Positions 21,889-56,245 of a DNA stretch of 64,000 nt are shown here, in pieces. Location: NCBI GenBank assembly GCA_011773515.1, contig WVXK01000023.1:67263-131262 (forward strand), given 5' to 3'. Within the stretch, counting starts at the first letter, position 1. Each line of letters starts with the position of its first letter. A program made the translations under genes and the position numbers. The DNA is from Deltaproteobacteria bacterium. GTDB taxonomy: Bacteria > Desulfobacterota > Deferrimicrobia > J040. Under the pieces are notes generated by a model, which ran no database searches, was not told the origin of the DNA, and saw only the letters and a program-made list of their open reading frames with translations.

Positions 21889-22248
21889 TCAGAGTGTTTC
21901 TCGAAGCGCGGGCGCGACAGATTTGAGATAAAACCTTGTCTTCCCCGTCAAGGAAACTTCGGACGTGACGACGAAGAGAAAATATTCATTCTCTATGACA
22001 AGAACGTGCACGTAATAATCGCTTCCCCCGAAACAGAGTTCTTCGACGCTCGAAAGGGAATTTTCAACAGATATTCTTGACAGCTCCTTCAGGAGAAAAG
22101 CAATCTCTGCTGCAATCGCAGAAAGGTCCAGATTCATCCGTCCGTTTTTCCATTCCTCTATAATCAGCCCGTCAAACGCGCTCACGGCGATTAATTGAAC
22201 CCTTTTTTCCCCTTCAGCTATCCTGCTTACAATGTCATGAAAAATCAT
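21889..22248 (-). CDS. Roadblock/LC7 (MglB-like) domain protein
   Basis: 119 aa; ..VQLIAVSAFDGLIIEEW..AAEIAFLLKEL..YVHVLVIENEYFLFVVTSEVSLTGKTRFYL.. fits the alpha-beta-alpha Roadblock pattern. No GTPase gene is adjacent. Confidence 0.5.
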   Translation of the reverse strand: MIFHDIVSRIAEGEKRVQLIAVSAFDGLIIEEWKNGRMNLDLSAIAAEIAFLLKELSRISVENSLSSVEELCFGGSDYYVHVLVIENEYFLFVVTSEVSLTGKTRFYLKSVAPALRETL

Positions 22249-24068
22249 CTGTATGCCTCCACAATTTTTTGGAGAAAACCATTGAGAGCCTCAGCATATC
22301 TATTCAGCATCCCCTCCTTTTTGTGAAGAGAATCGATTTTATCCCTCAAACGGATTGCACCTTCGTTTCCGGGGTCATCTTTTAAAATTTTCTCGAGAAC
22401 CTCGAGCGATTTATCCCTCTTTCCTTCCCTCAGCAGTACTTCCGCCATTGCGGTCGTGTAAACCGGAACTTCATCCTCAGCAACTTCCTCGGGGGCGGGG
22501 AGAGCCTCTTCCCTCACCTCTAAAGCAGGCTCCTCGGCGACGACATATGGTTCTCCGAGCTCTTCCTCTCCCTCGCCCTCACCATATTCATCATCCTCGA
22601 TACCCTCTATCTTATAGACATCCTCCCCTATCTTGACAATCGTCTCGGAAGGGATTGTCTCCACCTCGCCGCCCACTCCCTCAGGTTGCATCCGATCCTC
22701 GATCGCCTCATATTCCCTTCGCATTGCTATTGCTTCTTTATTCCCGGGATTGAGTTGGATAATCTCATCCAGGATCCTCAGGGCCGCCACATTTTTTCCC
22801 TGCCTCGAATACAACCTCGCCAGGGTAAGGTTCAACTTCTCATCTGTTGGGTCCCTGTCAAGAAGCCTCTTTACAAGATTTTCGGCATCGTTGAATCTTC
22901 CGCTTGACTCGAGAACGTCCAGATCCTCATATATTTCTCCCTCTACCTTGCTTCTCACCTTTGCCTCCATGAAGCTTTGGAGGAAATTCAGGGACTCGAC
23001 AGCATACTTCTCGTAATCCTTCAGTTGAAACGTGCGGATTTCAGACCTTCCTATATCGGTCAATACGGGAACATCCAACGTATCGAGCGCCCTCTTCTTG
23101 TCTCTCATGAACAGGGCAAACACGTTTGAATAATCGACATTCTCGGGAAGTATCTCGTACCTGAGATTCTCCAGCACACCTATCACGATATTGCGTATCT
23201 CCTCTGCACAGGCCCCCACGGTCAGGCTGATCTGAGCTTCAATCGCCATGCCGGCAGCAACAGCCTCGCCGTGGAGCAGTCGCGTGTAGGACGTGGCCTC
23301 CTCGATGCCGTGGCCGATGGTGTGCCCGAAATTAAGCACTTTTCTCTGCCATGACTCCTTTTCATCTGCCTCGACGACGGCAATTTTATATTGAATGCTC
23401 CGCGATATGACATCCATCAAAAGCGGTGTATGTGAACGGATATCTTCGAGCTTTTTTCCCCTGAGCAATCTGATGATTTCACCGTCCCCGATGAAACCCA
23501 CTTTCAAAACTTCAGCCAGTCCCGCCAGAAAATTTCTGTCGTCGAGAGTCGACAGGTACTTGATGTCGATAAAAACCGCCCGGGGTTGGAAAAATGACCC
23601 GATGACATTCTTGGCGTCCTTGAAATTTATGCCCGTTTTCCCGCCAACACTGCTGTCGACCTGGGCAAGAAGTGTCGTGGGTATCTGGATATAATCTACA
23701 CCTCTCATAAAGGTGGCGGCACAGAAGCCGACAATGTCCCCTGTCACCCCTCCACCGAAAGACACGATCAGCGACCTCCTGTCGCACTCTTTATCGAGAA
23801 GAAACTCGTATACAGCACGGGCATTATCGTGGTTTTTCCTCTCTTCTGAGGCCTCGAGGGGGAAAATGTGGCAGTCGATATTCTTGAAGATCTGTTCCAC
23901 ATCATCTTTATAGATCTCGTAAAAGGCGGCGTCGATTATCAGGAACGCTTTCTTGTTCGCATAAACCCGTAACATCCACTCTTCGATAAATTTTCCGAGG
24001 TCGTTCCCTGTGAAGATGTCGTAGGATTTTTCTCCCAGCTCTACATTTATCGTTCTTTCAACGGTCAA
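22245..24068 (-). CDS. aroB: 3-dehydroquinate synthase fused to a C-terminal TPR/acidic extension
   Basis: N-terminal ~360 aa are canonical AroB (..GGGVTGDIVGFCAATFMRGVDYIQIPTTLLAQVDSSVGGKTGIN..HTIGHGIEE..HGEAVAAGM..). The following ~250 aa carry TPR-like repeats and a poly-acidic linker (EDDEYGEGEGEEELGEP..). Confidence 0.85.
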   Translation of the reverse strand: MTVERTINVELGEKSYDIFTGNDLGKFIEEWMLRVYANKKAFLIIDAAFYEIYKDDVEQIFKNIDCHIFPLEASEERKNHDNARAVYEFLLDKECDRRSLIVSFGGGVTGDIVGFCAATFMRGVDYIQIPTTLLAQVDSSVGGKTGINFKDAKNVIGSFFQPRAVFIDIKYLSTLDDRNFLAGLAEVLKVGFIGDGEIIRLLRGKKLEDIRSHTPLLMDVISRSIQYKIAVVEADEKESWQRKVLNFGHTIGHGIEEATSYTRLLHGEAVAAGMAIEAQISLTVGACAEEIRNIVIGVLENLRYEILPENVDYSNVFALFMRDKKRALDTLDVPVLTDIGRSEIRTFQLKDYEKYAVESLNFLQSFMEAKVRSKVEGEIYEDLDVLESSGRFNDAENLVKRLLDRDPTDEKLNLTLARLYSRQGKNVAALRILDEIIQLNPGNKEAIAMRREYEAIEDRMQPEGVGGEVETIPSETIVKIGEDVYKIEGIEDDEYGEGEGEEELGEPYVVAEEPALEVREEALPAPEEVAEDEVPVYTTAMAEVLLREGKRDKSLEVLEKILKDDPGNEGAIRLRDKIDSLHKKEGMLNRYAEALNGFLQKIVEAYR

Positions 24069-25766: not shown

Positions 25767-25786
25767 TCCCTCAAAAGCTCATGAAT

Positions 25787-25822
25787 AAAAAAAAGCACCT
25801 GGAACGAGCACCAGGTGCTTTT
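25787..25822 (-). terminator. Rho-independent terminator between pilQ and aroC (9-bp GC-rich stem, T8 tract on minus strand; A8-stem-T4 makes it bidirectional)
   Basis: Plus strand: A8 (25787-25794), GCACCTGG (25795-25802), loop AACGAGCA, CCAGGTGC (25811-25818), TTTT. Confidence 0.6.
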
Positions 25823-25841
25823 CGTGAAAAAGACAAAAGAA

Positions 25842-28049
25842 TCAGATCTCCTGACTGTTCTCAATGATCTTTGGTGTGATAAATATCAGAAGCTCCGTAT
25901 TATCGTTTCTCTCCGTCTCCTTTTTAAAGAACCAGCCCAGGAGGGGAATCTTGTGAAACCATGGGACGGCATCAATACTTTCGGTCCTTTGAATCTGCAG
26001 GATGCCGCCTATGACAGCGGTCTCCCCGTCTTGTATCAGCACCTGTGTGTCTGCCTCGCGGCTCGATATTGATGGCACCCCGTTTACGGCGTTCCCGAAA
26101 TCTGGGGTATCGTTTGCCGCATTGAGTTCCATAACGATCGTCTTGTCAGGCGTGATATGCGGTGTGACTTTGAGTTTCAGCGCCGCGTCGACAAATTCCG
26201 TCTGTGTACCCGAAGCGGAAACGGTTGAGTAGGGTATTTTTACTCCTTGCTGTATTATGGCCTCGTTATTTGTTGTCGTCACTATCTTGGGGCTTGAAAT
26301 GATCTTGCCGTTCCCCGTTGTCTCGAGAGCAGAGAGGGAAAGGTCGAGCCTGAAATCGCCCCGCAATATGCCGAAGGCTATACCCCCACCAGAGCCCTGG
26401 CCCACCGCTGCCGGAAGGTTGACCGCATAAGTGGGGAAATTGGGGTTCGGTGTCTGGGCGTCAGGGAACAGCGTCCCCGTATCATCCTGAATGCCGGAAA
26501 CAAAGATCCCGTCAGGCTGGCTCTGGTATGCGGCGCCCCACTGAACGCCCAGCTCTCTGGTAAACTGGGTGCTTACCTCGACTATTCTTGCCTCTATGAG
26601 AACCTGGGGTGTGGGTGTGTCGAGCTTTTTAACCAGATCTCTTACCTTCTCAATGTTTTTGGGTATGTCCTTTATGACCAGGGTGTTGGTCCGCTCATCA
26701 ACCTTTGCCTTTCCTCGCGCGGACATAACTTCCTTGATCTGATCTTCGAGTTCTTTCACGTTAGCGAAGTTTACCGGGATCGTTTCGATGACCAGTTCCT
26801 CGAGTTCCTCCTTATTCTTGATGCTCTGAAGAACCTCCTTTTCCTCTTCCCTCAATTTGCTGATCGGGGCAATTCTCAGAACATTCCCTTCGAGCTTCGC
26901 GCCGAGGCCTTTGGTTTTCAGAACGATATCCAAAACCTGGTCCCAGGGAATATTGACCAGCCGCAGCGTAACCTTCCCTTTGACCTCGTCGGAGGTAATG
27001 ATATTCAGGTTGCTCACCTCGGCTATGATCCTCAGCACGTTATGAATATCAGCATCTTTGAAGTCGAGGGAAATCCTCTGCCCCCTGTAGACTTTCTGCT
27101 CCATGCTATCGATAGTCACGAAGGGGGCAACTTCTCCAACAACGGGGCTGGAGGGAGCCGCCCGTGCCTCCATTTCACTCTTTTTGACGGCCCTGTACTC
27201 GGCCACTCTGTACCCTTTTTTCTCGACCTTTTTCTCCTTGGCGAAAGAAAGTACGAGCCTCTCATCCCCCTCGTTTACATCGTATTGATGTCCCCTCTCG
27301 TATGCGACCTTGACTGACACATCATCCCCATCCCTGTTTGCATCAACCATTTTTACGGGAATGTCGAATTTGGTCGCATCGAGATGGCGGAGAAGGTTTT
27401 CGGCGATTTTGACCTTCTTTACGGTAACGATTGCGAGCCCATCAGATCCTTTCTTCTCTATGACAGGTTTTTTCGAGTAGCTAATCACCACGTTTGACTT
27501 TTCTGGAAAATCTTCGAGATCTATCCCCGTAATTTCAGGAACGGCGGGAGATGGCTCCACTCCCCTATCAAGACTGGTAACCTTTTCCTCTGCGCCACCC
27601 CCCACTGAAACGACGATATCCCCGTTTTCGGTGGTGACGAGAAACGGAAGGGGAAGGTCTTTGGCCGTTTCGATCATTAATCTCACTTTATCTTCCTGCT
27701 CCGCGATCTTGATACCTTGCACTTGCGGTGTGTTGACAGCAATCTGTTCCTTCCCGATAAGGTTCTTTACGCCCCACAAATCCAGTATTATGCGAAAGGG
27801 ATCAGAAATCTTGAAAGCATTGTAATTTTTCAATTCCCCCTGTATACTTGCCCGAATATTGGTGAAATAAGCGGTCTTGTCGATCATTATCTCCTTGAGC
27901 AGTGTCGTCTCCGCCTTTTCCTGCATATCTTTACCACCCGCGTCGTCAGCCGCATAAACCTTCACTCCCAGGAACACAAGGAGTGTTAAAAGGACGATGA
28001 GCAGTAAAGCTTTCTTGACCAGGTCTTTCATCAAGTTCTTATGATCCAT
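25842..28049 (-). CDS. pilQ: Type IV pilus secretin PilQ
   Basis: 735 aa with a signal peptide, AMIN-like N-terminal repeats, N0/N1 and a C-terminal secretin domain (..VPWFHKIPLLGWFFK..TELLIFITPKII). Confidence 0.9.
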   Translation of the reverse strand: MDHKNLMKDLVKKALLLIVLLTLLVFLGVKVYAADDAGGKDMQEKAETTLLKEIMIDKTAYFTNIRASIQGELKNYNAFKISDPFRIILDLWGVKNLIGKEQIAVNTPQVQGIKIAEQEDKVRLMIETAKDLPLPFLVTTENGDIVVSVGGGAEEKVTSLDRGVEPSPAVPEITGIDLEDFPEKSNVVISYSKKPVIEKKGSDGLAIVTVKKVKIAENLLRHLDATKFDIPVKMVDANRDGDDVSVKVAYERGHQYDVNEGDERLVLSFAKEKKVEKKGYRVAEYRAVKKSEMEARAAPSSPVVGEVAPFVTIDSMEQKVYRGQRISLDFKDADIHNVLRIIAEVSNLNIITSDEVKGKVTLRLVNIPWDQVLDIVLKTKGLGAKLEGNVLRIAPISKLREEEKEVLQSIKNKEELEELVIETIPVNFANVKELEDQIKEVMSARGKAKVDERTNTLVIKDIPKNIEKVRDLVKKLDTPTPQVLIEARIVEVSTQFTRELGVQWGAAYQSQPDGIFVSGIQDDTGTLFPDAQTPNPNFPTYAVNLPAAVGQGSGGGIAFGILRGDFRLDLSLSALETTGNGKIISSPKIVTTTNNEAIIQQGVKIPYSTVSASGTQTEFVDAALKLKVTPHITPDKTIVMELNAANDTPDFGNAVNGVPSISSREADTQVLIQDGETAVIGGILQIQRTESIDAVPWFHKIPLLGWFFKKETERNDNTELLIFITPKIIENSQEI

Positions 28050-28051
28050 AC

Positions 28052-28621
28052 CTATTCTCCTCCTGGAAGTGGGAGCGTTAGTCTCTTTTCCCTCGTAACT
28101 TTCCTTCCCGTTATATCAAAGTATTCTTCGATAACGACAATTTCTTTGTCGGTAATCTGCGAAATAACACCGCCGTTTTTGCCTACCTTCACTCCCTTTT
28201 TCACCGTGTAACCCTTTCCCTCATTATCTTCGATGAGAGCCAGTGTCTCATTGCTTTTCATCAGAACCCCCACAATTTTCAGTTCTCCCAGGTCAAACTT
28301 CTCAAGAGGGGTAAGGGCTCCTTTCCTCTTTACCGCAACGGCCTCTTCCTTCAAAAAGGGCAAAAACGGGTCCTTCAGCCCCGTAGCGGTATAACCGGCA
28401 AATGTGTCTTCAACCGGCTCTTTTTCTGAAACAGGCTCCTCCGTTTTCGGCTCCTTAACTTGCTTCTGGACTTTCTTGACTACCCGGGAAACTTTCTGCG
28501 TCTTCCCCTGCTCCCCAGAACAGCCGGTGAAAGTCAGGGAAAAAGCTACGATCAACAGAATAAATACAAAGATCCCCGAACTTGCCATACGTTTACATTT
28601 CATCCGTGATAATCCTTTCAT
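28052..28621 (-). CDS. pilP: Type IV pilus assembly lipoprotein PilP
   Basis: 189 aa; lipobox FTGCSG; position between pilO and pilQ. Confidence 0.8.
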   Translation of the reverse strand: MKGLSRMKCKRMASSGIFVFILLIVAFSLTFTGCSGEQGKTQKVSRVVKKVQKQVKEPKTEEPVSEKEPVEDTFAGYTATGLKDPFLPFLKEEAVAVKRKGALTPLEKFDLGELKIVGVLMKSNETLALIEDNEGKGYTVKKGVKVGKNGGVISQITDKEIVVIEEYFDITGRKVTREKRLTLPLPGGE

Positions 28622-29205
28622 TTTTCAGGCTTTTTCTCCTTAAGGAATCTGAAAGTCCTCGCGGTGCAGTTGATCGTCATGACAGCTTTGTCCCTCGAGA
28701 TAACCGGCCTGTCAAAGAGCACGTCGGATACATTCACGATTCTCGACAGCCTGCTCACCCGGTCAAGGAACATCCCGAAATCGTGGAAACCTCCGTTGAC
28801 GGATATATCGACCGGTATTTCCGCATAAAACTCTCTCGGCACCTCCCCTTTCGGTGCGAATTTCAGGAAATCCAAGCCGCTTTCTTTTCCAACATCGGAT
28901 ATATTCCTCAAGAGCTTCGGTATTTCAGAAGAGTTCGGAAGCTGTTCGAGCAGCTCATTGAGCTGTACCTCCAGCTTTACCACCTCTTTTTTAAAGGTCT
29001 CGAGATCCTTGGCAATAATTCTCTGTTCCTTGATTTTTCCCTCAAGGGTCACTTTCTGCTGCTGGAGGGCATCTATTTGGGTTTTTACCGGCGTGTAGTA
29101 AAGGTAATAGTAGCCGACGAGAACTGCCACAACCACCAAACCGTAAAGCACCGCCTTCTGCTTTGTCCCTACGCCTTTCAAGGATAGCTTGTCTCTAAGC
29201 GCCAT
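28618..29205 (-). CDS. pilO: Type IV pilus assembly protein PilO
   Basis: 195 aa bitopic protein with an N-terminal TM and coiled coil, in conserved position. Confidence 0.8.
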   Translation of the reverse strand: MALRDKLSLKGVGTKQKAVLYGLVVVAVLVGYYYLYYTPVKTQIDALQQQKVTLEGKIKEQRIIAKDLETFKKEVVKLEVQLNELLEQLPNSSEIPKLLRNISDVGKESGLDFLKFAPKGEVPREFYAEIPVDISVNGGFHDFGMFLDRVSRLSRIVNVSDVLFDRPVISRDKAVMTINCTARTFRFLKEKKPEK

Positions 29206-29220
29206 AGTTCACCCTTGTAT

Positions 29221-29757
29221 TTAAGCTTTCAATTCCACTCTGATTTTAAAAAGCATCATCCGGACGCCCCTCACTACCTTCCTCTCGGCTGACTGGAGCT
29301 CTATTTTTCCGAATTTTTCTGTGGCCCCGAGATTGTTCATGAAGTCGGCTACCACGTAGTTGTTGAGAGCGTAGCCCTGTATCTCCATGGACCGTCCAGA
29401 ATAATTCAGCCTCGAAATCCACGCCTTTTCAGGAACTGTCCGGGCGAGGGTATCCATGACAATAACAGGCGCCTTCCTCCCCCTCTGGAGATTTGCCACG
29501 ATATTCACTTTTTTCTGGAGCTCTTTTTTCTTTTGCTTGAACTTTTCAACTTCCCCGATCTGTTTTTGAAGTTGGGCTATTTCCTGCTTGGCTTTCTTTA
29601 TATCATCCTCGAGACGGGACACCTTTGCGACGAGAACTGTTTTGTGAAAGGAGAACAAAAGAAGTATGAAAGCGATGATTGAGAGAAAGAAGACAAGGTC
29701 GACATTGATCTTCTTCTTCCTTTTGCGCTTCTGTCTTATGAGATTGATCTTTATCAT
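29221..29757 (-). CDS. pilN: Type IV pilus assembly protein PilN
   Basis: 178 aa; N-terminal INLI motif (MIKINLIRQK) then TM and coiled coil. Confidence 0.85.
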   Translation of the reverse strand: MIKINLIRQKRKRKKKINVDLVFFLSIIAFILLLFSFHKTVLVAKVSRLEDDIKKAKQEIAQLQKQIGEVEKFKQKKKELQKKVNIVANLQRGRKAPVIVMDTLARTVPEKAWISRLNYSGRSMEIQGYALNNYVVADFMNNLGATEKFGKIELQSAERKVVRGVRMMLFKIRVELKA

Positions 29758-30815
29758 TACTTGTCTCCTGGTTTTCTCATTGACAACCCCGTGACAACTG
29801 TTGCCGCCGTACCGAAGTTTTTCACGTAATCTGGATTAACCGATGATTCATCGATCATGAGTCCTTCGAGGGGATCAAATATTTCCGCAGAAATGGAGAG
29901 CTTTTCCTCAATTAATTCCTTCAGGTGCCTGGCCCGGGCAGCCCCTCCTGCCAGGAAAACCTTCGTCACCAGCTTATCGGGATACGTGGCTGCGTAGAAG
30001 TTGTAGGACCTTTGCACTTCTGTCGCTATGATGCTGGACACATTCTTTACAACGGCATCCACCCGCTCCGGGTTGAAATCCTCCAGCTCCTCTCCCTTTT
30101 TCATATTCTCTGCAACACTGTATGAAACGCCAAACTGCCGCTGAATTTCATTGTTGTACATGGACCCGCCCATCGACACATCCCGGGTAAAGAGAGGGAT
30201 GCCCTCATCGAGAATGATGATGTTCATGAAGGAGGAGCCCAGATTGACCACCATGGGAAGTTGCTCGTCCGAGATTCCCGAGCAGGCCTCGAACGCGTTC
30301 CCAACGGCTATTGAATCCACACCGATTATCGATGGGACGAGCCCTGCCTCTCTTATCACCGACACGTATTCCTCAACGAGATCGTTTTTCGCGGCAACGA
30401 GCAAAACGTCCATCCGGGTTGGATCGTCCCGCAGTGGCCCGATGACCTGAAAATCTATCTTCACATCCTTGACTTCAAAGGGTATGTACTGCTCTACCTC
30501 CCACTGAATTGATTCTTCGAGGTCCTCAGGGGTTGTCGTCGGCAGAACAACCTTTTTTATGATAACTGAATGTCCTTCAATCGACGCCGCAACGTATTTG
30601 TCCCGAATACCGAGATCGGCAAAGCCGTTCTTTATCGTTTCCACCACCGTGCTGTGGTCCATGATCGCCCCATCGACGACGGTATCCGGAGAGAGGGGAA
30701 AAACACCGAATTTCTGAACCTGAAACGAAACTCCCATCTCCTTCAACTTCATGATCTTGATACTCGACGATCCGATGTCCAATCCCACAAGCTCTTTTTT
30801 TCCGAATAGATTCAT
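29757..30815 (-). CDS. pilM: Type IV pilus assembly protein PilM (actin-like ATPase fold)
   Basis: 352 aa; ..LVGLDIGSSSIKIMKL.. with an FtsA/actin-like fold; the stop overlaps the pilN start. Confidence 0.9.
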   Translation of the reverse strand: MNLFGKKELVGLDIGSSSIKIMKLKEMGVSFQVQKFGVFPLSPDTVVDGAIMDHSTVVETIKNGFADLGIRDKYVAASIEGHSVIIKKVVLPTTTPEDLEESIQWEVEQYIPFEVKDVKIDFQVIGPLRDDPTRMDVLLVAAKNDLVEEYVSVIREAGLVPSIIGVDSIAVGNAFEACSGISDEQLPMVVNLGSSFMNIIILDEGIPLFTRDVSMGGSMYNNEIQRQFGVSYSVAENMKKGEELEDFNPERVDAVVKNVSSIIATEVQRSYNFYAATYPDKLVTKVFLAGGAARARHLKELIEEKLSISAEIFDPLEGLMIDESSVNPDYVKNFGTAATVVTGLSMRKPGDK

Positions 30816-30825: not shown

Positions 30826-31074
30826 CTATTCTTCTTCATCAAAGCCAAAAACCTTATTCTTATCGGAGAGCTTCAATCCGAGGGCAAGTATTATTTTCCG
30901 CTTGGTATCCATTCTGCACCGCATACCCTTTTCGATCCTGTCTATGGTGAGCACCGACACGCTCGCCCGTCTCGCGAGTTCTGCCTTACTCATGAGTTGG
31001 CTCTCCCGTATCTTCTTTACGTTGTTCTTTTCACTATATTTTTGACTTTCCATTTCTCTTTTCATTTTCCCCAC
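30826..31074 (-). CDS. XRE-family helix-turn-helix transcriptional regulator
   Basis: ..ESQLMSKAELARRASVSVLTIDRIEKGMR.. is an HTH_XRE signature; ~80 aa. The start is more likely the ATG at 31065. Confidence 0.75.
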   Translation of the reverse strand: MGKMKREMESQKYSEKNNVKKIRESQLMSKAELARRASVSVLTIDRIEKGMRCRMDTKRKIILALGLKLSDKNKVFGFDEEE

Positions 31075-31171: not shown

Positions 31172-32542
31172 TCAATTTATATCATATTCTTTAATTTTAT
31201 ACAAAAGTGCAGGATGCGATATTCCGAGGATTTTTGCCGCAAGGGGTTTTCTTCCTTCCGTCTTCCTCAGGGCCTTTTTGATCATGTCCATCTCAAGCTC
31301 TTTAATGGCCTCCTTCAACGTTATCTTTTCAGGATCAAAATCCATAAAAGTAACGACACTTTCTTTTTTTATCTGTTCGCCAGGACCCTCCAGATATTTC
31401 GGGGTTATGATCTCCGTTTCTGCCATGACAACGGCTCGCTCGACAACGTTTTCCAGCTCCCTTACATTTCCCGGCCAATCGTATTCGGTCATCAACCTGA
31501 ACGCCTCCTCGGAGAATCCTTTTATTTTCTTATCGACTTTTTGAGAGAAAATGTTAACGAAATGTTCGACCAGGGTAATTATATCTTCCTTTCGTTCCCT
31601 GAGTGGGGGCATATGAATTACTAGCTTGTTGAGCCTGTAAAAGAGATCTTCCCGGAAACTGCCCCTCGCAACCTCCTCATTTAACTTCTTTGACGTTGCA
31701 GCAATCACCCTTACGTCAACTGAACGGCTTTCTGTATCCCCCACACGTCGTATTTCCCCCTCCTGAAGAAATCTGAGCAGCTTCGCCTGAACAGGCATCG
31801 ACAGCTCCGGAATTTCATCGAGGAACAGGGTTCCCCCGTCCGCCTCCTCGATGAGGCCCTTCTTGTCGTGCTGGGCATCGGTAAAAGCCCCCTTCTTGTA
31901 TCCGAAGAGCTCCGTTTCGATAAGGTTCTCAGGAAGCGCGGCACAATTTACGGGAACGAAAACGCCCCTCTTTCTTTCACCACTGAAGTGGAGCGCTCTC
32001 GCCACCAGCTCCTTCCCCGTACCCGACTCTCCGGTGATCAATACCGAAACATCATAATCCCTGCCTTTCTCGACGAGGGAAAAGACCTCTTCCATCGGTT
32101 TGCTTCTCCCGATAATCCCTTCAAAGGAGTATTTCCTCTCCAGTTCCCTCTTCAGTCTCTCGTTCTCCTCCCGCAGCGCCCTCTCGTCGAGGGCTTTCTT
32201 GATGATGACGAGGATTTCATCTATGTCGAAAGGCTTCGAAACATAGTAGTACGCCCCTTTCTTGACTGCCTTGATAACGGTCTTGATCGTTCCAAATGCA
32301 GACATCATTATGATGATAGACTTTATGCCTCTTTCTTTTGCATTTTCAAGGAACTCCATTCCGTCCATCTCGGGCATTTTTATATCTGCCAGCACAAGGT
32401 CGCAGGGATCAGACTCGAGGATTGCAAGACCCTCTTTCCCGTTCTCCGCAGTCCTTACTTGGAAGCCTTCCTTTTCAAGAACCCTTTTCAGGACATCCCG
32501 CACGTTCACCTCATCATCCATGACAAGAATTTTGTACTTCAA
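31172..32542 (-). CDS. pilR: Sigma-54-dependent response regulator, PilR-like (REC, AAA+ and Fis-type HTH domains)
   Basis: MKYKILVMDDE..; Walker A GESGTGKE; GAFTGA loop (here GAFTDA); [12 protein letters not shown]; C-terminal HTH. Downstream of the pilS-like kinase. Confidence 0.85.
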   Translation of the reverse strand: MKYKILVMDDEVNVRDVLKRVLEKEGFQVRTAENGKEGLAILESDPCDLVLADIKMPEMDGMEFLENAKERGIKSIIIMMSAFGTIKTVIKAVKKGAYYYVSKPFDIDEILVIIKKALDERALREENERLKRELERKYSFEGIIGRSKPMEEVFSLVEKGRDYDVSVLITGESGTGKELVARALHFSGERKRGVFVPVNCAALPENLIETELFGYKKGAFTDAQHDKKGLIEEADGGTLFLDEIPELSMPVQAKLLRFLQEGEIRRVGDTESRSVDVRVIAATSKKLNEEVARGSFREDLFYRLNKLVIHMPPLRERKEDIITLVEHFVNIFSQKVDKKIKGFSEEAFRLMTEYDWPGNVRELENVVERAVVMAETEIITPKYLEGPGEQIKKESVVTFMDFDPEKITLKEAIKELEMDMIKKALRKTEGRKPLAAKILGISHPALLYKIKEYDIN

Positions 32543-32599: not shown

Positions 32600-34210
32600 T
32601 CACCGCTTCGCAGATATTGGCAGGTAAACCCGGAACAGGGATCCCTTCCCTTCGGCGCTCTCGAAAGATACATACCCGTCGTAGGAATCAAGGATGGCCG
32701 TGGTAACCGATAATCCGAGCCCCGTTCCTTTTCCTGGATCCTTCGTCGTAAAGAAAGGATCGAAGATTTTATCCTTCTCCTCCTCTTTGATTCCTGTCCC
32801 CGTGTCAGCAATTTCAACAACGACGAAGCGGTCTGCCCATCTCTCCTTGCGAATCCCCCTGTTCATCCTCATACGTGCATAGTTAATCTCGGGGGGATCG
32901 GTCCTCCTTCTCCTGACCTGCTGAACCGATTCTTTTCCGGCTTCTCTCTTTTCAAGATAGGTTCGAATGGTCAGCGTCCCACCCCCGGGCATCGCGTCTA
33001 CCCCGTTCATGAAGAGGTTCAAGAGAACCTGCCTGAGCTTGCCGGGGTCGATGGAAGCTTTTGGCACGTCATCAAATTTCTTATCAATCGTGATTCTTTC
33101 GAAAATCTTCCTGTAGGAGAGCGATCGAATGATGTCCCCGATAATCTCGATGACATCAGCCTCCTCGACTTTACGGACGCCGATACGGGAGTGGGCAAGG
33201 AGTTCCCTCAATATCCCTTCGATTCTCCCCGATTCATCATGAACCCTCCCGAGACAATCTCTCTGCTCGTCGCTTAACTCGGTATTTCTCAACATGTGTG
33301 CAACATATCCCTTGATTGCCATGAGGGGATTTCCCACCTCATGCGCTATCCCCGAGGAAAGCCTCCCTATCGTAGCCATTTTTTCAGCCCGGATAACCTG
33401 GGCACGGGACAGCTTCAACTCTTCGTTCGTTTTCTCCAGGGCATCAACCATTTCCTCCAGGTCCCTTCGATGTCCCTCCAGCAGGTCAAGTGCATTGTTC
33501 AGGGCTTCCCCAAACCGTCCCAGTTCATTTGGCGGCATGTCCCTGACCCGCGTGTCCCTGTCCCCCCCTTCAATTTTCCCAACCACCTCGATGAGATCGG
33601 ACAGGGGAAGGGCAATTTTTTTTCTGAAAACAAAATAGGCAAAGAAGAAAAGAACGAGGACATACAGAAAAGATGTTGCCCCCACGATCGAACCCACTCT
33701 GCTAAAATCTCCGGGTCCCTGCAAATCGAATTCAAAGGCGTATATCTGCCCTGCCCCCTCCGACAGGAAAACGGGTATGAGGATCTCACCTCTTTTCCCC
33801 CGGGAGCGCGAGATTGCGCGCCCTGCAAAGAGAGCCCTCTTTTCACTATCTTTCAGCCATGGCGCTTGGCTTTCCCCGAGCACGGTATCAGCCGGAATTT
33901 TCCTGCCTCTAAAACCCGGATAGGAACTGCCAATCTGTTCCGAAAAGAGCAAAACTCCCGCATCGCCTTCGGCCCTGAATATCTCATGAACCGACGAGTT
34001 GAGTGATTCTGTGAGGAGGGTAAGGAACCCGGCCGTGTAATTCCGCCACATCAAACCGGTTGCGTAACTGAAAAGCAAGAGCTGGAACAAAAGAGCCGTT
34101 GAAAAGATGATGGCGAGGGCAACAGGGATACCCTTCCTTATACCGAGGGTCTTTCCGCTTTCCTTAATGCCCGGCAAATCTATATAGCCCCCTTGATGAA
34201 AGAAGACCAA
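32600..34210 (-). CDS. pilS: Sensor histidine kinase, PilS-like (2 TM, periplasmic sensor, HAMP, HisKA, HATPase_c)
   Basis: H-box IAHEVGNPLMAIKGY; N-box LLNLFMNGVDAM; G1 VEIADTGTGI; G2 GKGTGLGLS. An Arg-rich insertion of ~35 aa sits between the N and G1 boxes. Confidence 0.85.
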   Translation of the reverse strand: MVFFHQGGYIDLPGIKESGKTLGIRKGIPVALAIIFSTALLFQLLLFSYATGLMWRNYTAGFLTLLTESLNSSVHEIFRAEGDAGVLLFSEQIGSSYPGFRGRKIPADTVLGESQAPWLKDSEKRALFAGRAISRSRGKRGEILIPVFLSEGAGQIYAFEFDLQGPGDFSRVGSIVGATSFLYVLVLFFFAYFVFRKKIALPLSDLIEVVGKIEGGDRDTRVRDMPPNELGRFGEALNNALDLLEGHRRDLEEMVDALEKTNEELKLSRAQVIRAEKMATIGRLSSGIAHEVGNPLMAIKGYVAHMLRNTELSDEQRDCLGRVHDESGRIEGILRELLAHSRIGVRKVEEADVIEIIGDIIRSLSYRKIFERITIDKKFDDVPKASIDPGKLRQVLLNLFMNGVDAMPGGGTLTIRTYLEKREAGKESVQQVRRRRTDPPEINYARMRMNRGIRKERWADRFVVVEIADTGTGIKEEEKDKIFDPFFTTKDPGKGTGLGLSVTTAILDSYDGYVSFESAEGKGSLFRVYLPISAKR

Positions 34211-34376
34211 AACGAAACATAAACAGTTCTGCTCCAGAGTATTCTACAAATTCGACTCACCTGCATCAAGCAGGAAAAGGGGTTGCAGAACCAGCCTACC
34301 TTATAAGATCTAAACGTTACTGTATTTTACGCCCAGACTTGTCGATGAACTCAGAAAGAGCTAAAGCGGAGGAGCC

Positions 34377-34949
34377 ATGAAACCACAGAGAGGGAAAAAC
34401 CGAAGAAAGAAGTTTTACATAGACAGGGAGATCCAGATGGGGATCACTGTCAGGTTTCTTGCTATTTTCCTCGCCTTCATCTTCCTGACCACCTGTGCCG
34501 TATTCATTCCATCGTCGATCAAACTCTTGAGCCATGCGCCCGCCGAAGAGCTCATCCAGCCGGCACAGGAGTTTCTGATCCTGAAAAGCAGGGTGTGGCC
34601 GATGGCATTGGTCGTAATGCTTGCGGCGGTGGTGTACACCGTAATTTTTTCTCACAGAATCGCGGGACCCATTCAGCGATTGAACTCCGAGCTGAGGAAC
34701 ATTATTTCCGGAAACTACCCGGAAAGAATACGGTTGAGGAAAAAAGATTATTTCAAGGAAACGGCATCGCTGCTCGAGGAGCTCTCGCAAGAAATGGAGG
34801 CAGGAAGGAACCGCCCTTTTTCTATAGATGCGGCTGACATTGAAAAACAGATCGAAAAGATCAAAAGATCCATCCTGGAGTCGCAGGCCGATAAGGAAGT
34901 GCTCGATGAGCTGGATACGGTGCGATCAATGCTGAAGGGCCAAAAATGA
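34377..34949 (+). CDS. Membrane protein with two TM helices and a HAMP domain, no output domain
   Basis: TM1 ITVRFLAIFLAFIFLTT, TM2 WPMALVVMLAAVVYTVIF, then HAMP (HRIAGPIQRLNSELRNIISGNYPERI..ASLLEELSQEM) and a coiled coil. GGAGGAG RBS before the ATG; the stop overlaps the next gene's start (ATGA). Confidence 0.65.
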   Translation: MKPQRGKNRRKKFYIDREIQMGITVRFLAIFLAFIFLTTCAVFIPSSIKLLSHAPAEELIQPAQEFLILKSRVWPMALVVMLAAVVYTVIFSHRIAGPIQRLNSELRNIISGNYPERIRLRKKDYFKETASLLEELSQEMEAGRNRPFSIDAADIEKQIEKIKRSILESQADKEVLDELDTVRSMLKGQK

Positions 34950-35335
34950 TCTTGAGATTTCGGGGAGAAAAATCAAAAAAGGGATTCACCATCATCGAGC
35001 TGTCGATCGTGCTCGTGATAACGGGAATACTTGCAACGCTGGCAGTGACCACGTACTCTGCGCTGACAAAGAAGGCAAAAAGGGTCCAGGCAAAAATTGC
35101 ACTGAAACAGCTTGCCAAGGCCGAGTATATTTATTTCTCAGAACACGACAGCTATACCGACGATTCCACCGTGCTTGACTTCGATCCCATAGTGTATGAC
35201 TATTACACGATCACCGTTGAGGCATCGCAGCATGACTTCACGGGAAAAGCGGAGGGGAACCTGGACTCTGACAGCACTCTCGATACCTGGGTAATCCACA
35301 AAGACGGAAATCCCGTTTCCCTTATCCTCGATTAG
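34946..35335 (+). CDS. Type IV pilin-like protein (prepilin with class III signal peptide)
   Basis: MILRFRGEKSKKG|FTIIELSIVLVITGILATLAV.. is a canonical G/FTxIE prepilin N-terminus; 129 aa. Confidence 0.8.
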   Translation: MILRFRGEKSKKGFTIIELSIVLVITGILATLAVTTYSALTKKAKRVQAKIALKQLAKAEYIYFSEHDSYTDDSTVLDFDPIVYDYYTITVEASQHDFTGKAEGNLDSDSTLDTWVIHKDGNPVSLILD

Positions 35336-35337
35336 CG

Positions 35338-36102
35338 CTAGAAGGAAAAAAATTGGATGGCGAAGCTCCGGAGGATGATATCGGAAATAACCGCTCCCCC
35401 GGCCAGGAAAGGGCCAAAAGGAACGGCCGTTTTCAAGTCGCCCTTTTCTTTCACCATGAGGTACACGCCGAACAGCGTGCCAATCACCGACCCGATGAAA
35501 ATAGTTAAAATTGCCCCCTTGTAACCTGTAAACGCACCAACCATCCCGAGCAGTTTTATATCTCCACCGCCAAGGCCCTCTCTCTTGGTTATTCCTTCGT
35601 AGATAAGTGCCGTGAAATAGAGAATTCCACCCCCAACGACTATCCCGGTTGCCGAAAATTTCCATCCCTTGCCAAGGAGAAAAGAGACGATGAAAAAGCC
35701 CGCCACAAGACCTCCCAGGCTCAGGGTGTCCGGAATAATTCTCTTGTCGATATCGATGAAGGTCACCACGAACAGGATGGAGTAAAAAAGAAGATCCCTC
35801 AGGAGGAGAAAGGTTATTCCGTCGAACCGGTAGGCGAGAAAAAAAATGAGACCGGTGCACAGTTCCACAAAGGGGTACCTGGAGGAAATTCGAACTCCGC
35901 AGTTCCTGCATCTGCCCTTGAGAAGCAGATAACTGAGAATTGGAACGTTGTCCCTTGCCTGGATCTTGCTTTCACACGACGGGCACGATGAAGGGGGTCT
36001 GACGATCGACCTGCCCTCAGGCAGCCGGTGAATAATCACGTTGTAAAAACTGCCCATCACCGTACCGAGAAGAAAAAAGAAAAGAGAGGTTAGGCTTTCC
36101 AT
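35338..36102 (-). CDS. pilD: Prepilin peptidase (A24 family) PilD
   Basis: N-terminal zinc-binding CxxC pairs (CPSCESKI..CRNCGVRI), a multi-TM body and catalytic Asp motifs (..IDKRIIPD.., ..GGGDIKLLG..). Confidence 0.9.
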   Translation of the reverse strand: MESLTSLFFFLLGTVMGSFYNVIIHRLPEGRSIVRPPSSCPSCESKIQARDNVPILSYLLLKGRCRNCGVRISSRYPFVELCTGLIFFLAYRFDGITFLLLRDLLFYSILFVVTFIDIDKRIIPDTLSLGGLVAGFFIVSFLLGKGWKFSATGIVVGGGILYFTALIYEGITKREGLGGGDIKLLGMVGAFTGYKGAILTIFIGSVIGTLFGVYLMVKEKGDLKTAVPFGPFLAGGAVISDIILRSFAIQFFSF

Positions 36103-37259
36103 GCCCCTGCCTCGAGGAGCTTCCGGTAGAGTTCCCGGTGTTTTCTCACCATCTCCTTCTCTGAAAACTCGCTGATAAGATCCTCCTTCCCCTTTTCGAG
36201 GGCTTCCCTCTTTATCTCACCTTCACGCGCACGGATGATTCTTTCCGCTGCCTCAGAGGGAGAACGCACATCGATAAGAAAGCCGTTTACCCCATCCTCG
36301 ACCACCTCTGCCGTGCCGTCCACCGCAGTGGAAACGACAGGAACGCCGGCAATCAGAGCCTGAGGAATAACCTTCGGAAGCCCCTCCCACAGTGAGGTCA
36401 AAACCAGGGCATCAAAGGCAGCGATCACATCCCGGATGTTTTCCACCCACCCCGGCAATAAAAAATTATTCCCGAGACCCAAGTCCAGGATATTTTTCAT
36501 GATCTCGGAGCCCATTTCACCATCTCCAACCATCACGTATCTGAAGTCGTATCCTTTCTCTTTCAGCACATTTGCCATCTTCACAAAATCAAGCGGGGAT
36601 TTTTGAGGCTTGAAACAGGCCACCATCCCCACGGTAAACTTATCATCCTCGAGACCCAGAATCTCCCTGCCCCTCTCCCGTGAGGGGTTTCCAAATTCCT
36701 CCGTGTTGAAACCGGATCTGATCAGCACTGTCTTGCCCGCGTCAAATATCCCGAGTCCAATGCCCCGCCTACCATTGTCTTCGGAAACGAGGACGAAGTA
36801 ATCGGTGATACGCCCTACAATCCGTTCCACCATAATAAAGATCCGCCTTGCCAGGGATGATTGGAGGGGGTTGAAACCGAAACCGTGAACCGTATGGATG
36901 ATAATCTCACACCCTGCCATAGCCGCGGCAACCCTTCCCACTATGCCTGCTTTCGAGCTGTGTGTATGAACGATAACCGGTTGTTTGGGAGACATCTTTT
37001 TCAGCTTCCTCAAGATGCGGAAAATCTTGAGCAGGGACACGGCATCCCAGAGCGGTTTGATCTCCCGGACGAGCTCTTTTACCTGATAAAAGGTGAGCCC
37101 TTCGATTCTTTCCGCCCTTCCGTCGAGCATGCCCCCTTTTCCGGAAATCAGATGCACCTCGAAGAGGTCCCGGTCAGCCATTTCACAGTTGATGAGCGTA
37201 TTTTCCTGGGCCCCGCCGAGTTCCAGCAGGGTTATGATATGAACGAGTTTTGCCTTCAT
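36090..37259 (-). CDS. Glycosyltransferase family 4 (GT-B, group 1)
   Basis: ORF track gives 36090..37385, but the canonical GT4 N-terminus [18 protein letters not shown] begins at 37259, abutting the upstream stop. C-terminal EGLPKVIPQALIAGVPVVSTAVDGTAEVV motif. Confidence 0.85.
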   Translation of the reverse strand: MKAKLVHIITLLELGGAQENTLINCEMADRDLFEVHLISGKGGMLDGRAERIEGLTFYQVKELVREIKPLWDAVSLLKIFRILRKLKKMSPKQPVIVHTHSSKAGIVGRVAAAMAGCEIIIHTVHGFGFNPLQSSLARRIFIMVERIVGRITDYFVLVSEDNGRRGIGLGIFDAGKTVLIRSGFNTEEFGNPSRERGREILGLEDDKFTVGMVACFKPQKSPLDFVKMANVLKEKGYDFRYVMVGDGEMGSEIMKNILDLGLGNNFLLPGWVENIRDVIAAFDALVLTSLWEGLPKVIPQALIAGVPVVSTAVDGTAEVVEDGVNGFLIDVRSPSEAAERIIRAREGEIKREALEKGKEDLISEFSEKEMVRKHRELYRKLLEAGAWKA

Positions 37260-38266
37260 CAGAGGGTCATGTCTATCTTTTTCAACCATAGGGCCGTACC
37301 GGCGAATACCATCGCGTTTAAAAACAGAAAGAACAGCGCCATAAAGATGCCGGAAAGCATTATCGCAATCCCAAAGATGCCGCATATGATCGATGCTCCG
37401 TAGCTAAACAGCACCGTCTGCCTCACGCTCAGCCTCCATTTTCTCAGGCGGAGGGCAAAGTGATCCTTGCTGCCTTTGAATATCGACTCGCTTCTCCTGA
37501 GCCGGATGTAGGACACAAAGAACGTGTCAAAGAGAGGTACGCCGAATATGATAGCGGGCACGATAACAGCCAAGTAATTATGGGTTGCATACTGACCTAT
37601 CATTGAAAAAGCACCGAGTAAAAAGCCGAGCAGCAGGCTTCCACAATCCCCCATGAATATGGAGGCAGGGTTGAAATTATACGGCAGAAAACCCAAACAC
37701 GCACCCGCCAGGGCCAGGGAAAGGACACAGATTCCCATGTTCCCGTTTATCGCTGAGACGATGAACATGAACATGGCGCAAATAGAGCCGATCCCTACCG
37801 ATAGCCCATCCATGACATCTATGATGTTGAAGGCGTTGATCAACAGTAACATCCACAAGAAAGTCAAGAGCACCTGGAGAAAGGCGGGGATAAAGACTAT
37901 CTCGACCCTTATTCCCGATTTGATGAGGACGTATATGGCTATGAACTCACCCGTCAGCTTTGCACCCGGGCTGAGACGGCCGAGATCATCGATCAGGCCG
38001 ACCAAAACGATAATGCTCCCTCCGAGCAGTATCCCCAGGATGTTGGAGTCGAACCTGTATACGAGAGAAATACCGATGAGGAAGGACAGGTAAATGGAAA
38101 GACCCCCGAAATAGGGGATCGCTTCTCTATGCGTCTTCAGCAGTTCATCGGGTGCATCCACCACACCGAAACGCTTTGCCGCATCGCGTGCGACGGGGGT
38201 GGTGTAGAAGGAAACGAGAAAGGATATGATAAAGGTAAAGAACAGTATTGTCGGCGACAGGGTCAC
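37259..38266 (-). CDS. wecA: UDP-HexNAc:undecaprenyl-phosphate HexNAc-1-phosphate transferase (WecA/MraY-type initiating transferase)
   Basis: 335 aa polytopic protein with DDxxG (LIDDLGRLS) and [12 protein letters not shown] motifs; GTG start overlaps the upstream stop. Confidence 0.85.
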
Positions 38267-40372: not shown

Positions 40373-40424
40373 TAAACCTGGTCCCGGTGTATATTCTCTA
40401 ATAAAGTTTATCGGCTAAAACCAT

Positions 40425-41273: not shown

Positions 41274-41554
41274 ACCCCATAGAACTCCTTTTCACAAACA
41301 ATGTAAATAGCCACTTCAGCAGACAGGGGATAGATTCTTCCCCGCATTTTAAGAATCCCTTCCGTTCGTGTTCATGGATTTACCGATTTACCCCTGACTC
41401 ATAAGAATATCTGAGGCCCCAGTTGATGTCTTCTGAAACGATGCGCCAAGCTCCACCCTGTGAAACAAGATCATCTCACGAGGAAGAAGGAATAATCTTG
41501 TCAGCGTTATGATCAAAAAATTTCGATGTATTTAAATCTGACCCTCCTGACCGG

Positions 41555-43684: not shown

Positions 43685-43729
43685 TTGGACGATTTACAGA
43701 TGGGTATCTTATTCGATAGATTATATTTA

Positions 43730-46177: not shown

Positions 46178-46189
46178 ATCATTTGGCCG

Positions 46190-53571: not shown

Positions 53572-54054
53572 CTACACGTCGTTTGCAACGTTTACCAGAG
53601 AGTTCAAGTCGTTGATGGTCCATGAATCTAGGTCGGCATCGTTGTCTATGTTCCCGATCGCCCCAGCGGTGAACTGGTTTTGGCCCACGTCGATATTAGC
53701 GAGACCAGCCGTGTCATCGATAGTATCTGTAGATATGATAGAAAAATCAGAGCCTGGCCCCGGAGGGGTCGCGATTCCCTGATCCCCGCCGAGAGCATAG
53801 TCGTAGCGCTGACTCGTCCCCACGGGTTCCCAGTTGACCGCGTCGAACGTATTGTAGGTGCTGTACTCCCCAAAGTAAGATGTCTCAGCGGTGTATACCG
53901 CCTTCAGGTTCGTCTTCGCCTCGGACTGCTTCGACTTTGCCTGGAACTTAAGAAAGTTGGGGATCGCTATCGCCGCGAGAATACCGATAATCGCCACAAC
54001 GATCATCAGCTCGATGAGGGTAAAACCTTTTCTGCTTCTCACTCTTTTAATCAT
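53572..54054 (-). CDS. pilA: Type IVa major pilin PilA (copy 2)
   Basis: AGGAGG (54060-54065) then ATG at 54054: MIKRVRSRKG|[24 protein letters not shown]... The ORF track extends to 54159 via an upstream TTG, which is unlikely. Mature protein ~150 aa with no Cys. Its stop lies 4 nt before the ligase-like gene. Confidence 0.9.
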   Translation of the reverse strand: MIKRVRSRKGFTLIELMIVVAIIGILAAIAIPNFLKFQAKSKQSEAKTNLKAVYTAETSYFGEYSTYNTFDAVNWEPVGTSQRYDYALGGDQGIATPPGPGSDFSIISTDTIDDTAGLANIDVGQNQFTAGAIGNIDNDADLDSWTINDLNSLVNVANDV

Positions 54055-54317: not shown

Positions 54318-54755
54318 TTAAATGTCATCGATTAGATTTACAAGGTTCTTTATCTGGTCAATCTGCCAGATATCGTACGTTACATCCTGATCCAGGTTTC
54401 CCCAAGAGTATGCGCTGAACGATATGTTATCCGCCCCGGGTGTGATGCCTGCCGGAACGGGGTCGCCGATGCCGTACAGTTCACTTCCGACGGAATATGT
54501 GTAGTATTTGAGGGTACCCACGGGAACCCACCGTATCGTTGAAAAACTAGCAGAATACATGTCGAATTCGGCATAATATGAGAGCTCGCAATTATATATG
54601 GCACCGAGGTTCGACTTTGCTTCTGATTTCTTCGTTTTCGCCACGAAGTTGTTGAAGTTGGGAATTGCAATCGCCGCAAGAATACCGATGATGGCAACGA
54701 CGATCATCAGTTCGATGAGGGTAAAGCCATTCTCATCTTTCTCAATTTGAATCAT
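54318..54755 (-). CDS. pilA: Type IVa major pilin PilA (copy 1)
   Basis: [10 protein letters not shown]|[24 protein letters not shown]..; 145 aa. The first 24 mature residues are identical to copy 2; the C-terminal domain diverges. Confidence 0.9.
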
Positions 54756-54847: not shown

Positions 54848-56245
54848 TTACTCGATACCATATTTCTCCAGGCGATACCGCAGGGACCTGAAGGATATCC
54901 TCAACAGTTTCGCCGCCTCCGTTTTGTTTCCCCCCGCACGTTCGAGCGCCTTGAGGAGGAAGTTTCTTTCTATATTGCCGACAATCCCGTCAAGAGACGT
55001 CCCCTCCAGGGAGAGGCTTTCATAATATTCTGGAAGTTCATACTGCTCGTCGCCTGTCTCGATGAGGTTTTCCGGAAGACTCTCCGGGGTCACCTGATCT
55101 TTCAGTTCGAGGATTACCGCCCTCTCGATAATATTCTCCAGCTCCCTTACGTTGCCCGGAAAATCGTATCTCATGAGCATCCTCATCGCGTCGGGTGAAA
55201 TCTTTTTTATCTCCTTACCAATTTCGATCGCGTACCTGCTGAGGAAATGATGGGCCAAAAGGGGTATATCCTCCTTCCTGTCCCGCAGGGGAGGAACATG
55301 AATGGAAACAACGTTCAGACGGTAAAAGAGGTCATCTCTAAAGCTTCCATTTTCCACTGCATCGAGGAGGTTTTTTTTCGAAGCGGAAACTATCCTCGCA
55401 TCTACCCTGATGAGGTCATTGCCGCCAACCCGCCGAAAAGCCTTTTCCTGAATTGCCCGCAGAAGTTTTCCCTGCAACGGGTTCGGCATCTCACCGATCT
55501 CATCGAGAAACAGGGTTCCACCGCTTGCGAGTTCAAAGAGGCCCTGCTTATTGTTTATGGCACCGGTAAACGCACCTTTCACGTGACCGAAGAGCTCTGA
55601 TTCGAGAAGAGATTCGGGTATGGCAGCACAGTTTATCTCGACAAAAACATTTTCAAATCTTTCACTCTTGTTGTGGATAGCCCTTGATATAAGCTCTTTC
55701 CCCGTTCCCGATTCCCCGAGTATCAGAACGTTTGCATTCGTGGGAGCGATTCTATCTATGAGTTCGAATGTTTTCGTCATAGTTTCCGAAGCCCCGATGA
55801 TAAACTCATATGACAGCTTTTTCTTGACCTCCTCCCGCAACGCTATGTTGTGCAGGGTAATGTCCTTCTTTTCCAGAGCCCGCTCGACGAGGATGCTCAA
55901 CTCCTGATTGTCGAAGGGCTTCGTCACGTAATTGAACGCGCCCTGCCTCATGGCTAACACGGCGTTTTCAATGGAGCCATGAGCAGTCATAATGATAACC
56001 TCTGTCTCGGGGTGGGATTCTTTCACTCTTGTTAAAACACGAAGGCCGTCATCTCTGGCAGCCATTTTCATATCCGTTATCACCACATCGTACACGTGGA
56101 GAGACAAGAGCCGGTAGGCATCCTCAACTGTTCCCCCCGTATCCACAAGGTATCCGTTTTTCTTGAAGAAGATTTCAAGAACGGTTCGGATGCTCTCCTC
56201 GTCATCCATGATCAATATATATCTCTGGCCGTCTTTACCCTTCAT
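54848..56245 (-). CDS. Sigma-54-dependent response regulator (second PilR-like paralog, no adjacent kinase)
   Basis: REC (..[22 protein letters not shown]..), AAA+ ([25 protein letters not shown]), C-terminal HTH. The start overlaps the topA stop by 11 nt. Confidence 0.85.

Follow-up and report, generated by a model that had tools for sequence, protein, structure and literature searches.

A family of divergent HAMP-type membrane proteins coupled to prepilins by gene order and gene fusion

Our analysis of a 64,000-nucleotide (nt) stretch of the Deltaproteobacteria contig WVXK01000023.1 (the window, to which all coordinates below refer) brings to light a new HAMP protein family with recurrent genetic and fusion coupling to prepilins. 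Its member in the window, here called X, is a stand-alone HAMP-type protein of 190 residues with two transmembrane (TM) segments and no output domain, and its gene overlaps that of a 129-residue prepilin. We favour, at a rough probability of 0.45, a reading in which X, as a dimeric transducer or adaptor of the HAMP type, would engage the co-produced pilin and report to a HAMP sensor close by how much of that pilin is present or in what state. The core of the locus is laid out as follows.

34377..34949 (+): gene of X, HAMP-like membrane protein, 190 residues (from the list of open reading frames, ORFs)
34946..35335 (+): prepilin gene, 129 residues (ORF list, N_methyl match)
34946..34949 (+): ATGA overlap of the X stop and the pilin start, probable translational coupling (from the sequence)
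35338..36102 (-): pilD, prepilin peptidase (Pfam A24_N_bact 2.9e-34, Peptidase_A24 2e-19)
35333..35340: TAGCGCTA, a pair of facing stop codons with a CG spacer, the stops of the pilin gene and pilD both inside it

Coupling of X to prepilin genes and natural fusions

The positions that the original prediction had assigned to X, the pilin and pilD are all exact, and the ATGA overlap that it described between X and the pilin is confirmed at 34946-34949. The arrangement is kept in close relatives: the order X, pilin, convergent pilD recurs in loci L006, L010 and L001, whose X proteins are 92%, 91% and 58% identical to that of the window, and the overlap of start and stop is GTGA in L006, ATGA in L010 and 8 nt in L001. 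That the two genes stay together in related genomes, a point on which the pairing had been said to depend, is thus borne out.

The pairing also recurs in distant loci. Species-representative genomes supplied 14 loci and metagenomes 44, with targeted look-ups in addition; in these we re-detected the X genes by hidden Markov model (HMM) and recognized prepilins by the class III signal motif; the locus search used a 6-sequence alignment, which biases it towards the motif LRKKDY, a 17-sequence alignment being too divergent. Seventeen non-redundant X loci of full length have 700 bp or more of sequence downstream. In eight (the window, L001, L041, L050, L011, L052, L047 and L017) the start of a prepilin gene on the same strand falls no more than 600 bp downstream of X, in five more (L019, L021, L027, L070 and L014) a prepilin or degenerate pseudopilin lies within 5 kb upstream or divergently, and in L024 a prepilin lies 214 bp upstream of X. 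The background, taken from flanks more than 3 kb away, amounts to 3 prepilin ORFs in 105.7 kb, two of them the pilA genes of the window itself, and a binomial estimate for the adjacency is ~1e-10, a figure that ignores relatedness, L050 and L011 being one lineage. Hosts of X loci are found among Aminicenantes, Desulfobacterales, other 'Deltaproteobacteria' and a metagenome-assembled genome (MAG) of candidate division Kazan (L018). The co-occurrence across genomes for which a check had been proposed is therefore strongly positive, in these 8/17 loci and in X::pilin fusions.

In these fusions, X and prepilin are joined in one polypeptide. Three of the best 150 family representatives (P0129, P0146 and P0155) combine X with a GspG-like prepilin in this way, and a search with P0146 returned ~20 distinct X::GspG-like fusions of 336-497 residues (JGI, NCBI, ENA, Logan), one cluster of which comes from Vicinamibacteraceae and some of which lie on contigs of 75-172 kb. 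Their alignment keeps the cleavage motif G|F...E, with G217 and E222 invariant and F218 nearly invariant, as well as the GspG-type motifs DPW, RKD, NSD and DL-S-G-D, and in an AlphaFold2 model of a fusion (pLDDT 78, pTM 0.62) the 20 residues before G|F are disordered. The topology is coherent, X ending on the cytoplasmic side, where the prepilin leader also lies. In the fusions X is effectively a ~215-residue membrane-embedded leader extension that the prepilin peptidase could cut off; because X stands N-terminal of an intact G|F...E site, cleavage by PilD would free it from the mature pilin, and the intact site suggests proteolytic release in signalling.

The partner in the window is a prepilin with the cleavage region KKG|FTIIELSIV, a 13-residue leader (MILRFRGEKSKKG), a mature part of 116 residues and no Cys. 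It carries a class III signal in full (short basic leader, G-1, F+1, E+5 and a hydrophobic alpha1-N), matches N_methyl (PF07963) with 28.2 bits against a cutoff of 21.2 and TIGR02532 with 29.5 against 16.3, and has Myxococcus PilA as its best NCBIfam model (E=1.3e-16); it also matches PilA in PDB 8tj2 (1.2e-12) and Geobacter PilA-N. Filament-forming type IVa pilins and GspG typically carry a helix-breaking Gly14/Pro22 pair, of which the 129-residue pilin keeps Gly14 and has Thr at position 22. Pro22 is likewise missing from the pilins of the other X cassettes without an adjoining sensor of the kind described below (L001, L041, L052 and L017; across this group, the window included, Thr, Val or Met stands in its place), and it is present in the window's two PilA paralogues and in the sensor-linked pseudopilins. 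The sensor-less cassette pilins, that of the window among them, also share K-A-K-[KR]-V-Q-A after alpha1-N, and in their N-terminal halves those of L052, L041 and L017 are 52%, 50% and 38% identical to the window pilin. Over its full length the latter is 63% identical to the L001 pilin and ~33-34% to the two other window pilins, which score 129 and 93 bits with the Myxococcus PilA model as against its 61. Because these two are more canonical and score higher, the X-linked pilin is probably a specialized PilA-type paralogue and not the major pilin.

Such an arrangement might also be expected of a pilin-handling factor, with X a trans-acting (in the fusions cis-acting) 'pro-region' that would hold the prepilin, gate or present it to PilD, or exclude a non-polymerizing pilin without Pro22 from the pilus machine. 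In all ~20 fusions a disordered linker separates X from the intact G|F...E site that follows it, the C-terminus of X shares the cytoplasm with the prepilin leader, in the window clade pilD directly adjoins the pair in convergent orientation, and the sensor-less cassette pilins all lack Pro22. Yet nearly all known HAMP modules convert signals, X often stands beside HAMP sensors of variable output, pilD does not adjoin X in the distant loci, and no chaperone-like or protease-regulating domain was detected. Weighing these points together, we consider a handling role rather doubtful.

A divergent HAMP protein and its family

The predicted layout of X is given here by residue.

N-terminal tail: basic, on the cytoplasmic side
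~22-45: TM1
~46-73: periplasmic helix, with the motif AxxxxLxLxxRVWP
~74-92: TM2
~93-144: divergent HAMP
152-168 and 173-189: C-terminal helices

Eight Lys/Arg fall among the first 18 residues, the two hydrophobic segments are joined by a ~28-residue loop, and His-Arg follows directly after the second; by the positive-inside rule, this basic N-terminus and the His-Arg after TM2 would place both ends in the cytoplasm. The sequence stops 46 residues beyond the HAMP, and neither Pfam nor NCBIfam finds MCPsignal, HisKA/HATPase_c or GGDEF in it, so that the description of X as a stand-alone two-TM HAMP-type protein without an output domain holds.

The HAMP itself had been called a textbook one, which it is not. 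Pfam HAMP (PF00672) matches X with E=0.13 and 13.1 bits, under the 25-bit cutoff; weak NCBIfam matches fall on the TM2-HAMP segments of BaeS, VicK and WalK, and a PHROGs search gave nothing informative. A family profile of 47 sequences, by comparison, matches residues 197-318 of E. coli Tsr (E=3.6e-6), gapless over the HAMP helix AS1, the connector and the second helix AS2, with weaker matches to the Af1503-Tsr chimera (3zx6), HtrII and Aer. Pro98 of AS1 and Gly112 of the connector are invariant in all 47 sequences, and instead of the usual acidic AS2 start and E-x-G motif the family has an invariant R121-x-x-D124-[YF]-[FL]. An AlphaFold2 monomer model (pLDDT 73.5) has helices at 17-51, 56-110, 127-144, 152-168 and 173-189, of which helix 56-110 would run from the periplasmic helix through TM2 into AS1, loop 111-126 would be the connector and helix 127-144 AS2; a Foldseek search of the model against the PDB returned only non-significant matches to WalK, McpB and Aer2. 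Supported at the level of the family profile only, the HAMP of X is a divergent one.

Judged by its sequences, the X family is large, widespread across many bacterial phyla, and unnamed. A word-index search with X found only six relatives, while an exhaustive profile search over cluster representatives returned 9,919 at E<=1e-3, 2,092 at <=1e-10 and 125 at <=1e-30; most of the best 150 of the 2,092 are 190-230 residues long. A second profile search added 502 at E<=1e-10, of ~203-251 residues among the 120 matches listed, none of which carries a precomputed Pfam domain, and no Pfam or NCBIfam family matches the X family. Fifteen positions are invariant over 47 diverse members, R10, Q20, P45, A63, R72, W74, P75, R94, G97, P98, R101, G112, R121 and D124 among them. 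A short subfamily of ~145-150 residues ends directly after the HAMP and scores ~75-87 with the HMM as against >170 for full-length members; its loci include L013, L020, L023, L029, L032, L037, L040, L044, L054, L064 and L066, in Omnitrophota MAGs for example.

These numbers bear on whether the pairing means anything at all. The public names of X relatives are 'methyl-accepting chemotaxis protein', 'nitrate/nitrite histidine kinase' or hypothetical, and together with the sub-threshold Pfam HAMP they could suggest that X is a decayed chemoreceptor or kinase fragment, or a spurious ORF, standing beside the pilin by chance. Thousands of ~200-residue homologues with 15 invariant residues speak against decay, as do the absence of MCPsignal or kinase remnants in the sequence 3' of the X gene, the conserved synteny and the natural fusions, and we find this explanation scarcely credible. 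The idea that X is a misannotated fragment of a longer receptor, which the original prediction had raised against itself, is accordingly rejected on the consistent family length of ~200 residues. Members annotated as chemotaxis proteins or histidine kinases are thus misnamed.

Sensor neighbours and the surrounding locus

Around the X-pilin pair, and at a second pilin locus of the window, lie the following features.

32600..34210 (-): sensor histidine kinase, divergent from X (HAMP, HisKA and HATPase matches)
31172..32542 (-): sigma54-dependent NtrC-family response regulator, cognate to the kinase (domain matches)
30826..31074 (-): XRE/HTH_3 protein, 82 residues, between pilM and the sigma54 regulator
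25842..30815 (-): pilMNOPQ, alignment and secretin genes downstream of the kinase-regulator pair (type IV pilus context)
34272..34287 (+): weak sigma54-promoter-like site AGGAAAAGGGGTTGCA, ~90 nt upstream of X (unproven, read by eye)
51632-56245 (-): second pilin locus, with topA upstream and no kinase adjoining
54848..56245 (-): sigma54 NtrC-type regulator, directly upstream of two canonical PilA genes
54318..54755 (-): canonical PilA-type pilin
53572..54054 (-): canonical PilA-type pilin
54143-54158 (-): near-consensus sigma54 site TGGCACGATTGTTGAA
51632..53269 (-): Wzy_C/TPR protein after the two pilA genes, resembling pilin O-glycosylation ligases

The kinase beside X has two hydrophobic segments flanking a loop of ~120 residues, a HAMP at 195-244, HisKA and HATPase; its best models are AtoS and ZraS, which makes it a two-TM HAMP kinase of the NtrB/AtoS type, and it is conserved beside X in L006. 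The X-pilin pair does lie between a kinase-regulator pair and pilD, as first described, and the label 'PilS/PilR' given to that pair, which depends on context, is unproven: the kinase has two membrane segments and not the six-helix membrane domain of PilS, and it is the second sigma54 regulator that adjoins the more canonical pilA genes. The pilMNOPQ names follow Pfam matches to PilM, PilN, PilO and PilP in L006, whose arrangement is identical to that of the window and which keeps the XRE protein, there of 79 residues, in the same position; pilB, pilT and pilC are not in the 64-kb window.

In eight other loci (L002, L011, L014, L019, L021, L068, L069 and L070) a HAMP sensor stands directly beside X or the fusion. 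These distant-locus sensors share a homologous N-terminal region of ~300 residues followed by a HAMP and differ in their outputs, which are GAF-HD-GYP or HD-GYP in L002, L011, L014, L068 and L070, histidine kinase in L019 and L021, and hybrid kinase in L069; the X profile matches their TM2-HAMP region. A conserved lipoprotein of ~130 residues with the motif PDELxGxW is usually present at the distant X loci. The window cassette, for its part, resembles the sensor-less X-pilin pairs L041, L052 and L017.

As an observation in its own right, a module of a GspG-like pseudopilin and a sensor recurs in Aminicenantes, Desulfobacterota and Acidobacteriota (L011:5415-9893, for example), at the eight sensor loci just named and in L071, for the most part together with X and the lipoprotein, and no secretion or pilus machinery was found near these modules.

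The clustering of X, GspG-like pseudopilin and lipoprotein around sensors with a common N-terminal domain, the match of the X profile to the TM2-HAMP of those sensors, and a pseudopilin-sensor pair without X in Geopsychrobacter would fit a role in which X serves the neighbouring sensor alone, as an accessory subunit such as a heterodimerizing 'half-receptor', with its adjacency to pilins indirect and due to the shared sensor. Against such a role, direct X::pilin fusions exist, X-pilin cassettes occur without a sensor (L041, L052 and L017) and in a window that lacks this sensor family, and the overlap of X and pilin is conserved; we therefore hold it to be improbable.

The 8-bp palindrome to which the original prediction drew attention is present between the pilin gene and pilD and does contain both stops; its significance is not demonstrable, and it is a by-product of the facing stops. 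The two convergent genes are separated by 2 nt, and for identical facing stops a self-complementary dinucleotide spacer is expected in 1 of 4 cases, so that the palindrome is uninformative, any two such stops and such a spacer creating one. Its counterpart is TAACGTTA in the 92% relative L006 and, in L001, the relative at 58%, TAACATCA, which is no palindrome. A terminator or regulatory site at this position was rejected: no terminator-like hairpin or T-run lies between the pilin gene and pilD, and the palindrome is not conserved in L001.

Several other features of the window merit mention. From 36090 to 51645, on the minus strand except for one gene, runs a set of glycosyltransferase, radical-SAM and WecA-like genes, the first of which overlaps pilD by 13 nt; the run ends at the Wzy_C gene beside the pilA genes and, with pilus genes on either side, could represent an island for glycosylation of pilins or of the surface. 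At 20344-30815 (-), pilMNOPQ are followed by aroC, aroK, aroB, aroQ, a peptidase M24 gene and efp, the AroB ORF (22245..24068, 607 residues) having a C-terminal TPR region. Two adjoining GGDEF diguanylate cyclase genes, one with GAF, lie at 5609-8134 (-), and upstream of them, at 8714-15759, are BamA-like and TamB-like genes.

Proposed mechanism and comparison with known systems

We suggest that X and the 129-residue prepilin form a two-gene cassette in which X would sit in the inner membrane with both ends cytoplasmic and, through the ATGA overlap, would be made in a fixed ratio with the pilin. X would bind the membrane-embedded N-terminal helix of the pilin or its cytoplasmic leader, and the state or amount of this membrane partner would be converted into a conformational signal in X, which would pass to the adjoining HAMP sensor: here the divergent kinase with its sigma54 regulator next to pilMNOPQ, and elsewhere an HD-GYP phosphodiesterase, a kinase or a hybrid kinase. 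X may thus signal the pilin or pseudopilus state, as originally proposed.

Several observations weigh against this transducer role. The physical contact of X and pilin, the direction of signalling and the kinase as target are points that we infer, which for the contacts of X with pilin and kinase counts as a weakness in itself. The HAMP domains of the window kinase and X align in register with generic similarity only, and a specific likeness of the two was rejected on that ground. The window holds no homologue of the lipoprotein or of the N-terminal domain of the distant sensors, and its cassette may therefore work differently; in Geopsychrobacter electrodiphilus (L071) the pseudopilin-sensor pair is present without X and without the lipoprotein, so that X appears dispensable for that pair. 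Upstream of X, no sigma54 promoter was found at <=2 mismatches to the consensus and a scan of the upstream sequence found no convincing promoter; AGGAAAAGGGGTTGCA has GG-N10-GC spacing and a perfect TTGCA with 3 mismatches to the consensus, and its presence in L006 and L010 is uninformative because these relatives are too similar to the window (~90% identical overall). Finally, members of the short subfamily seldom stand beside a prepilin (only L062, at -469, and L064, at -723), no prepilin was found near full-length X within the available sequence of L015, L022 and L008, and the sequence of L002 ends at the sensor, with no prepilin in its available part.

A broader and more speculative proposal, which we put forward with considerable reserve and think rather unlikely to hold in full, is that X, the pilin-type protein and, where present, the lipoprotein make up a pilin-based transmembrane sensing device. 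A non-polymerizing pilin or pseudopilin would be the periplasmic sensor and X its HAMP transducer, with interchangeable outputs (kinase plus sigma54 regulator, HD-GYP phosphodiesterase of cyclic di-GMP, hybrid kinase), and where X and pilin are fused, the cut made by the prepilin peptidase would set X free or activate it. If this is true, pilin-fold proteins act as signalling receptors independently of a pilus or secretion machine, and the many 'orphan' pseudopilin genes beside cyclic di-GMP and two-component sensors gain a function. To our knowledge, no dedicated transducer protein for inner-membrane pilins has been described. A literature search for HAMP with pseudopilin or prepilin, or pseudopilin with HD-GYP, found nothing describing the pairing (subscription journals lay outside its coverage), in keeping with the original statement that a HAMP transducer coupled to a pilin is not a described component of type IV pili.

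The closest known protein in architecture is Af1503 of Archaeoglobus fulgidus, a receptor from which the first HAMP structure was reportedly obtained. Like X, it is a two-TM protein with little more than a HAMP on the cytoplasmic side and neither a catalytic nor a chemotaxis output domain; unlike X, it has a large extracytoplasmic sensor domain, a canonical HAMP and no reported link to pilins, whereas in X the periplasmic loop is only ~28 residues long, the HAMP is divergent, with K-D-Y-[FL] where the AS2 Glu motif would stand, a helical tail is added, and the protein is coupled or fused to prepilins. With the HAMP modules of Tsr (6s1k/8c5v), WalK, BaeS and NarQ, X shares a TM2 that runs directly into AS1 (with its Pro), a Gly connector and AS2, the TM2-HAMP of Tsr being the closest to X in sequence. 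In contrast to these receptors and kinases, X has no kinase-control or catalytic domain after the HAMP and scores under the Pfam gathering threshold. Similarly, a T2SSG/GspG-like domain with DPWGxPY motifs is common to most distant X partners and to every fusion, which likens them to GspG, the major pseudopilin of the type II secretion system, but the X-linked GspG-like loci lack secretion ATPase, platform and secretin genes, and the partner in the window is PilA-like and not GspG-like.

In function, the nearest parallels are systems in which a kinase reads a membrane pilin. PilS of Pseudomonas aeruginosa reportedly senses the PilA pilin within the membrane, and the likeness lies in an inner-membrane pilin pool that is read by a membrane protein controlling transcription of the sigma54/PilR type. 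There, however, the PilS kinase itself senses the pilin through six TM helices, with no separate HAMP protein, whereas the window encodes an output-less HAMP protein together with the pilin and an adjoining kinase of only two TM segments. PilSR regulation in Pseudomonas has been covered elsewhere (PMC6058289). Caulobacter PilA, in turn, is a membrane-resident pilin that signals to the kinase PleC (PMC7196804); it too makes a membrane pilin the input of a sensor kinase, but with no HAMP adaptor and no coupling of pilin to transducer by fusion or operon. Inner-membrane pilins are thus known as signals, in the PilA-PilS and PilA-PleC pairs, and the X family would supply them with a dedicated transducer.

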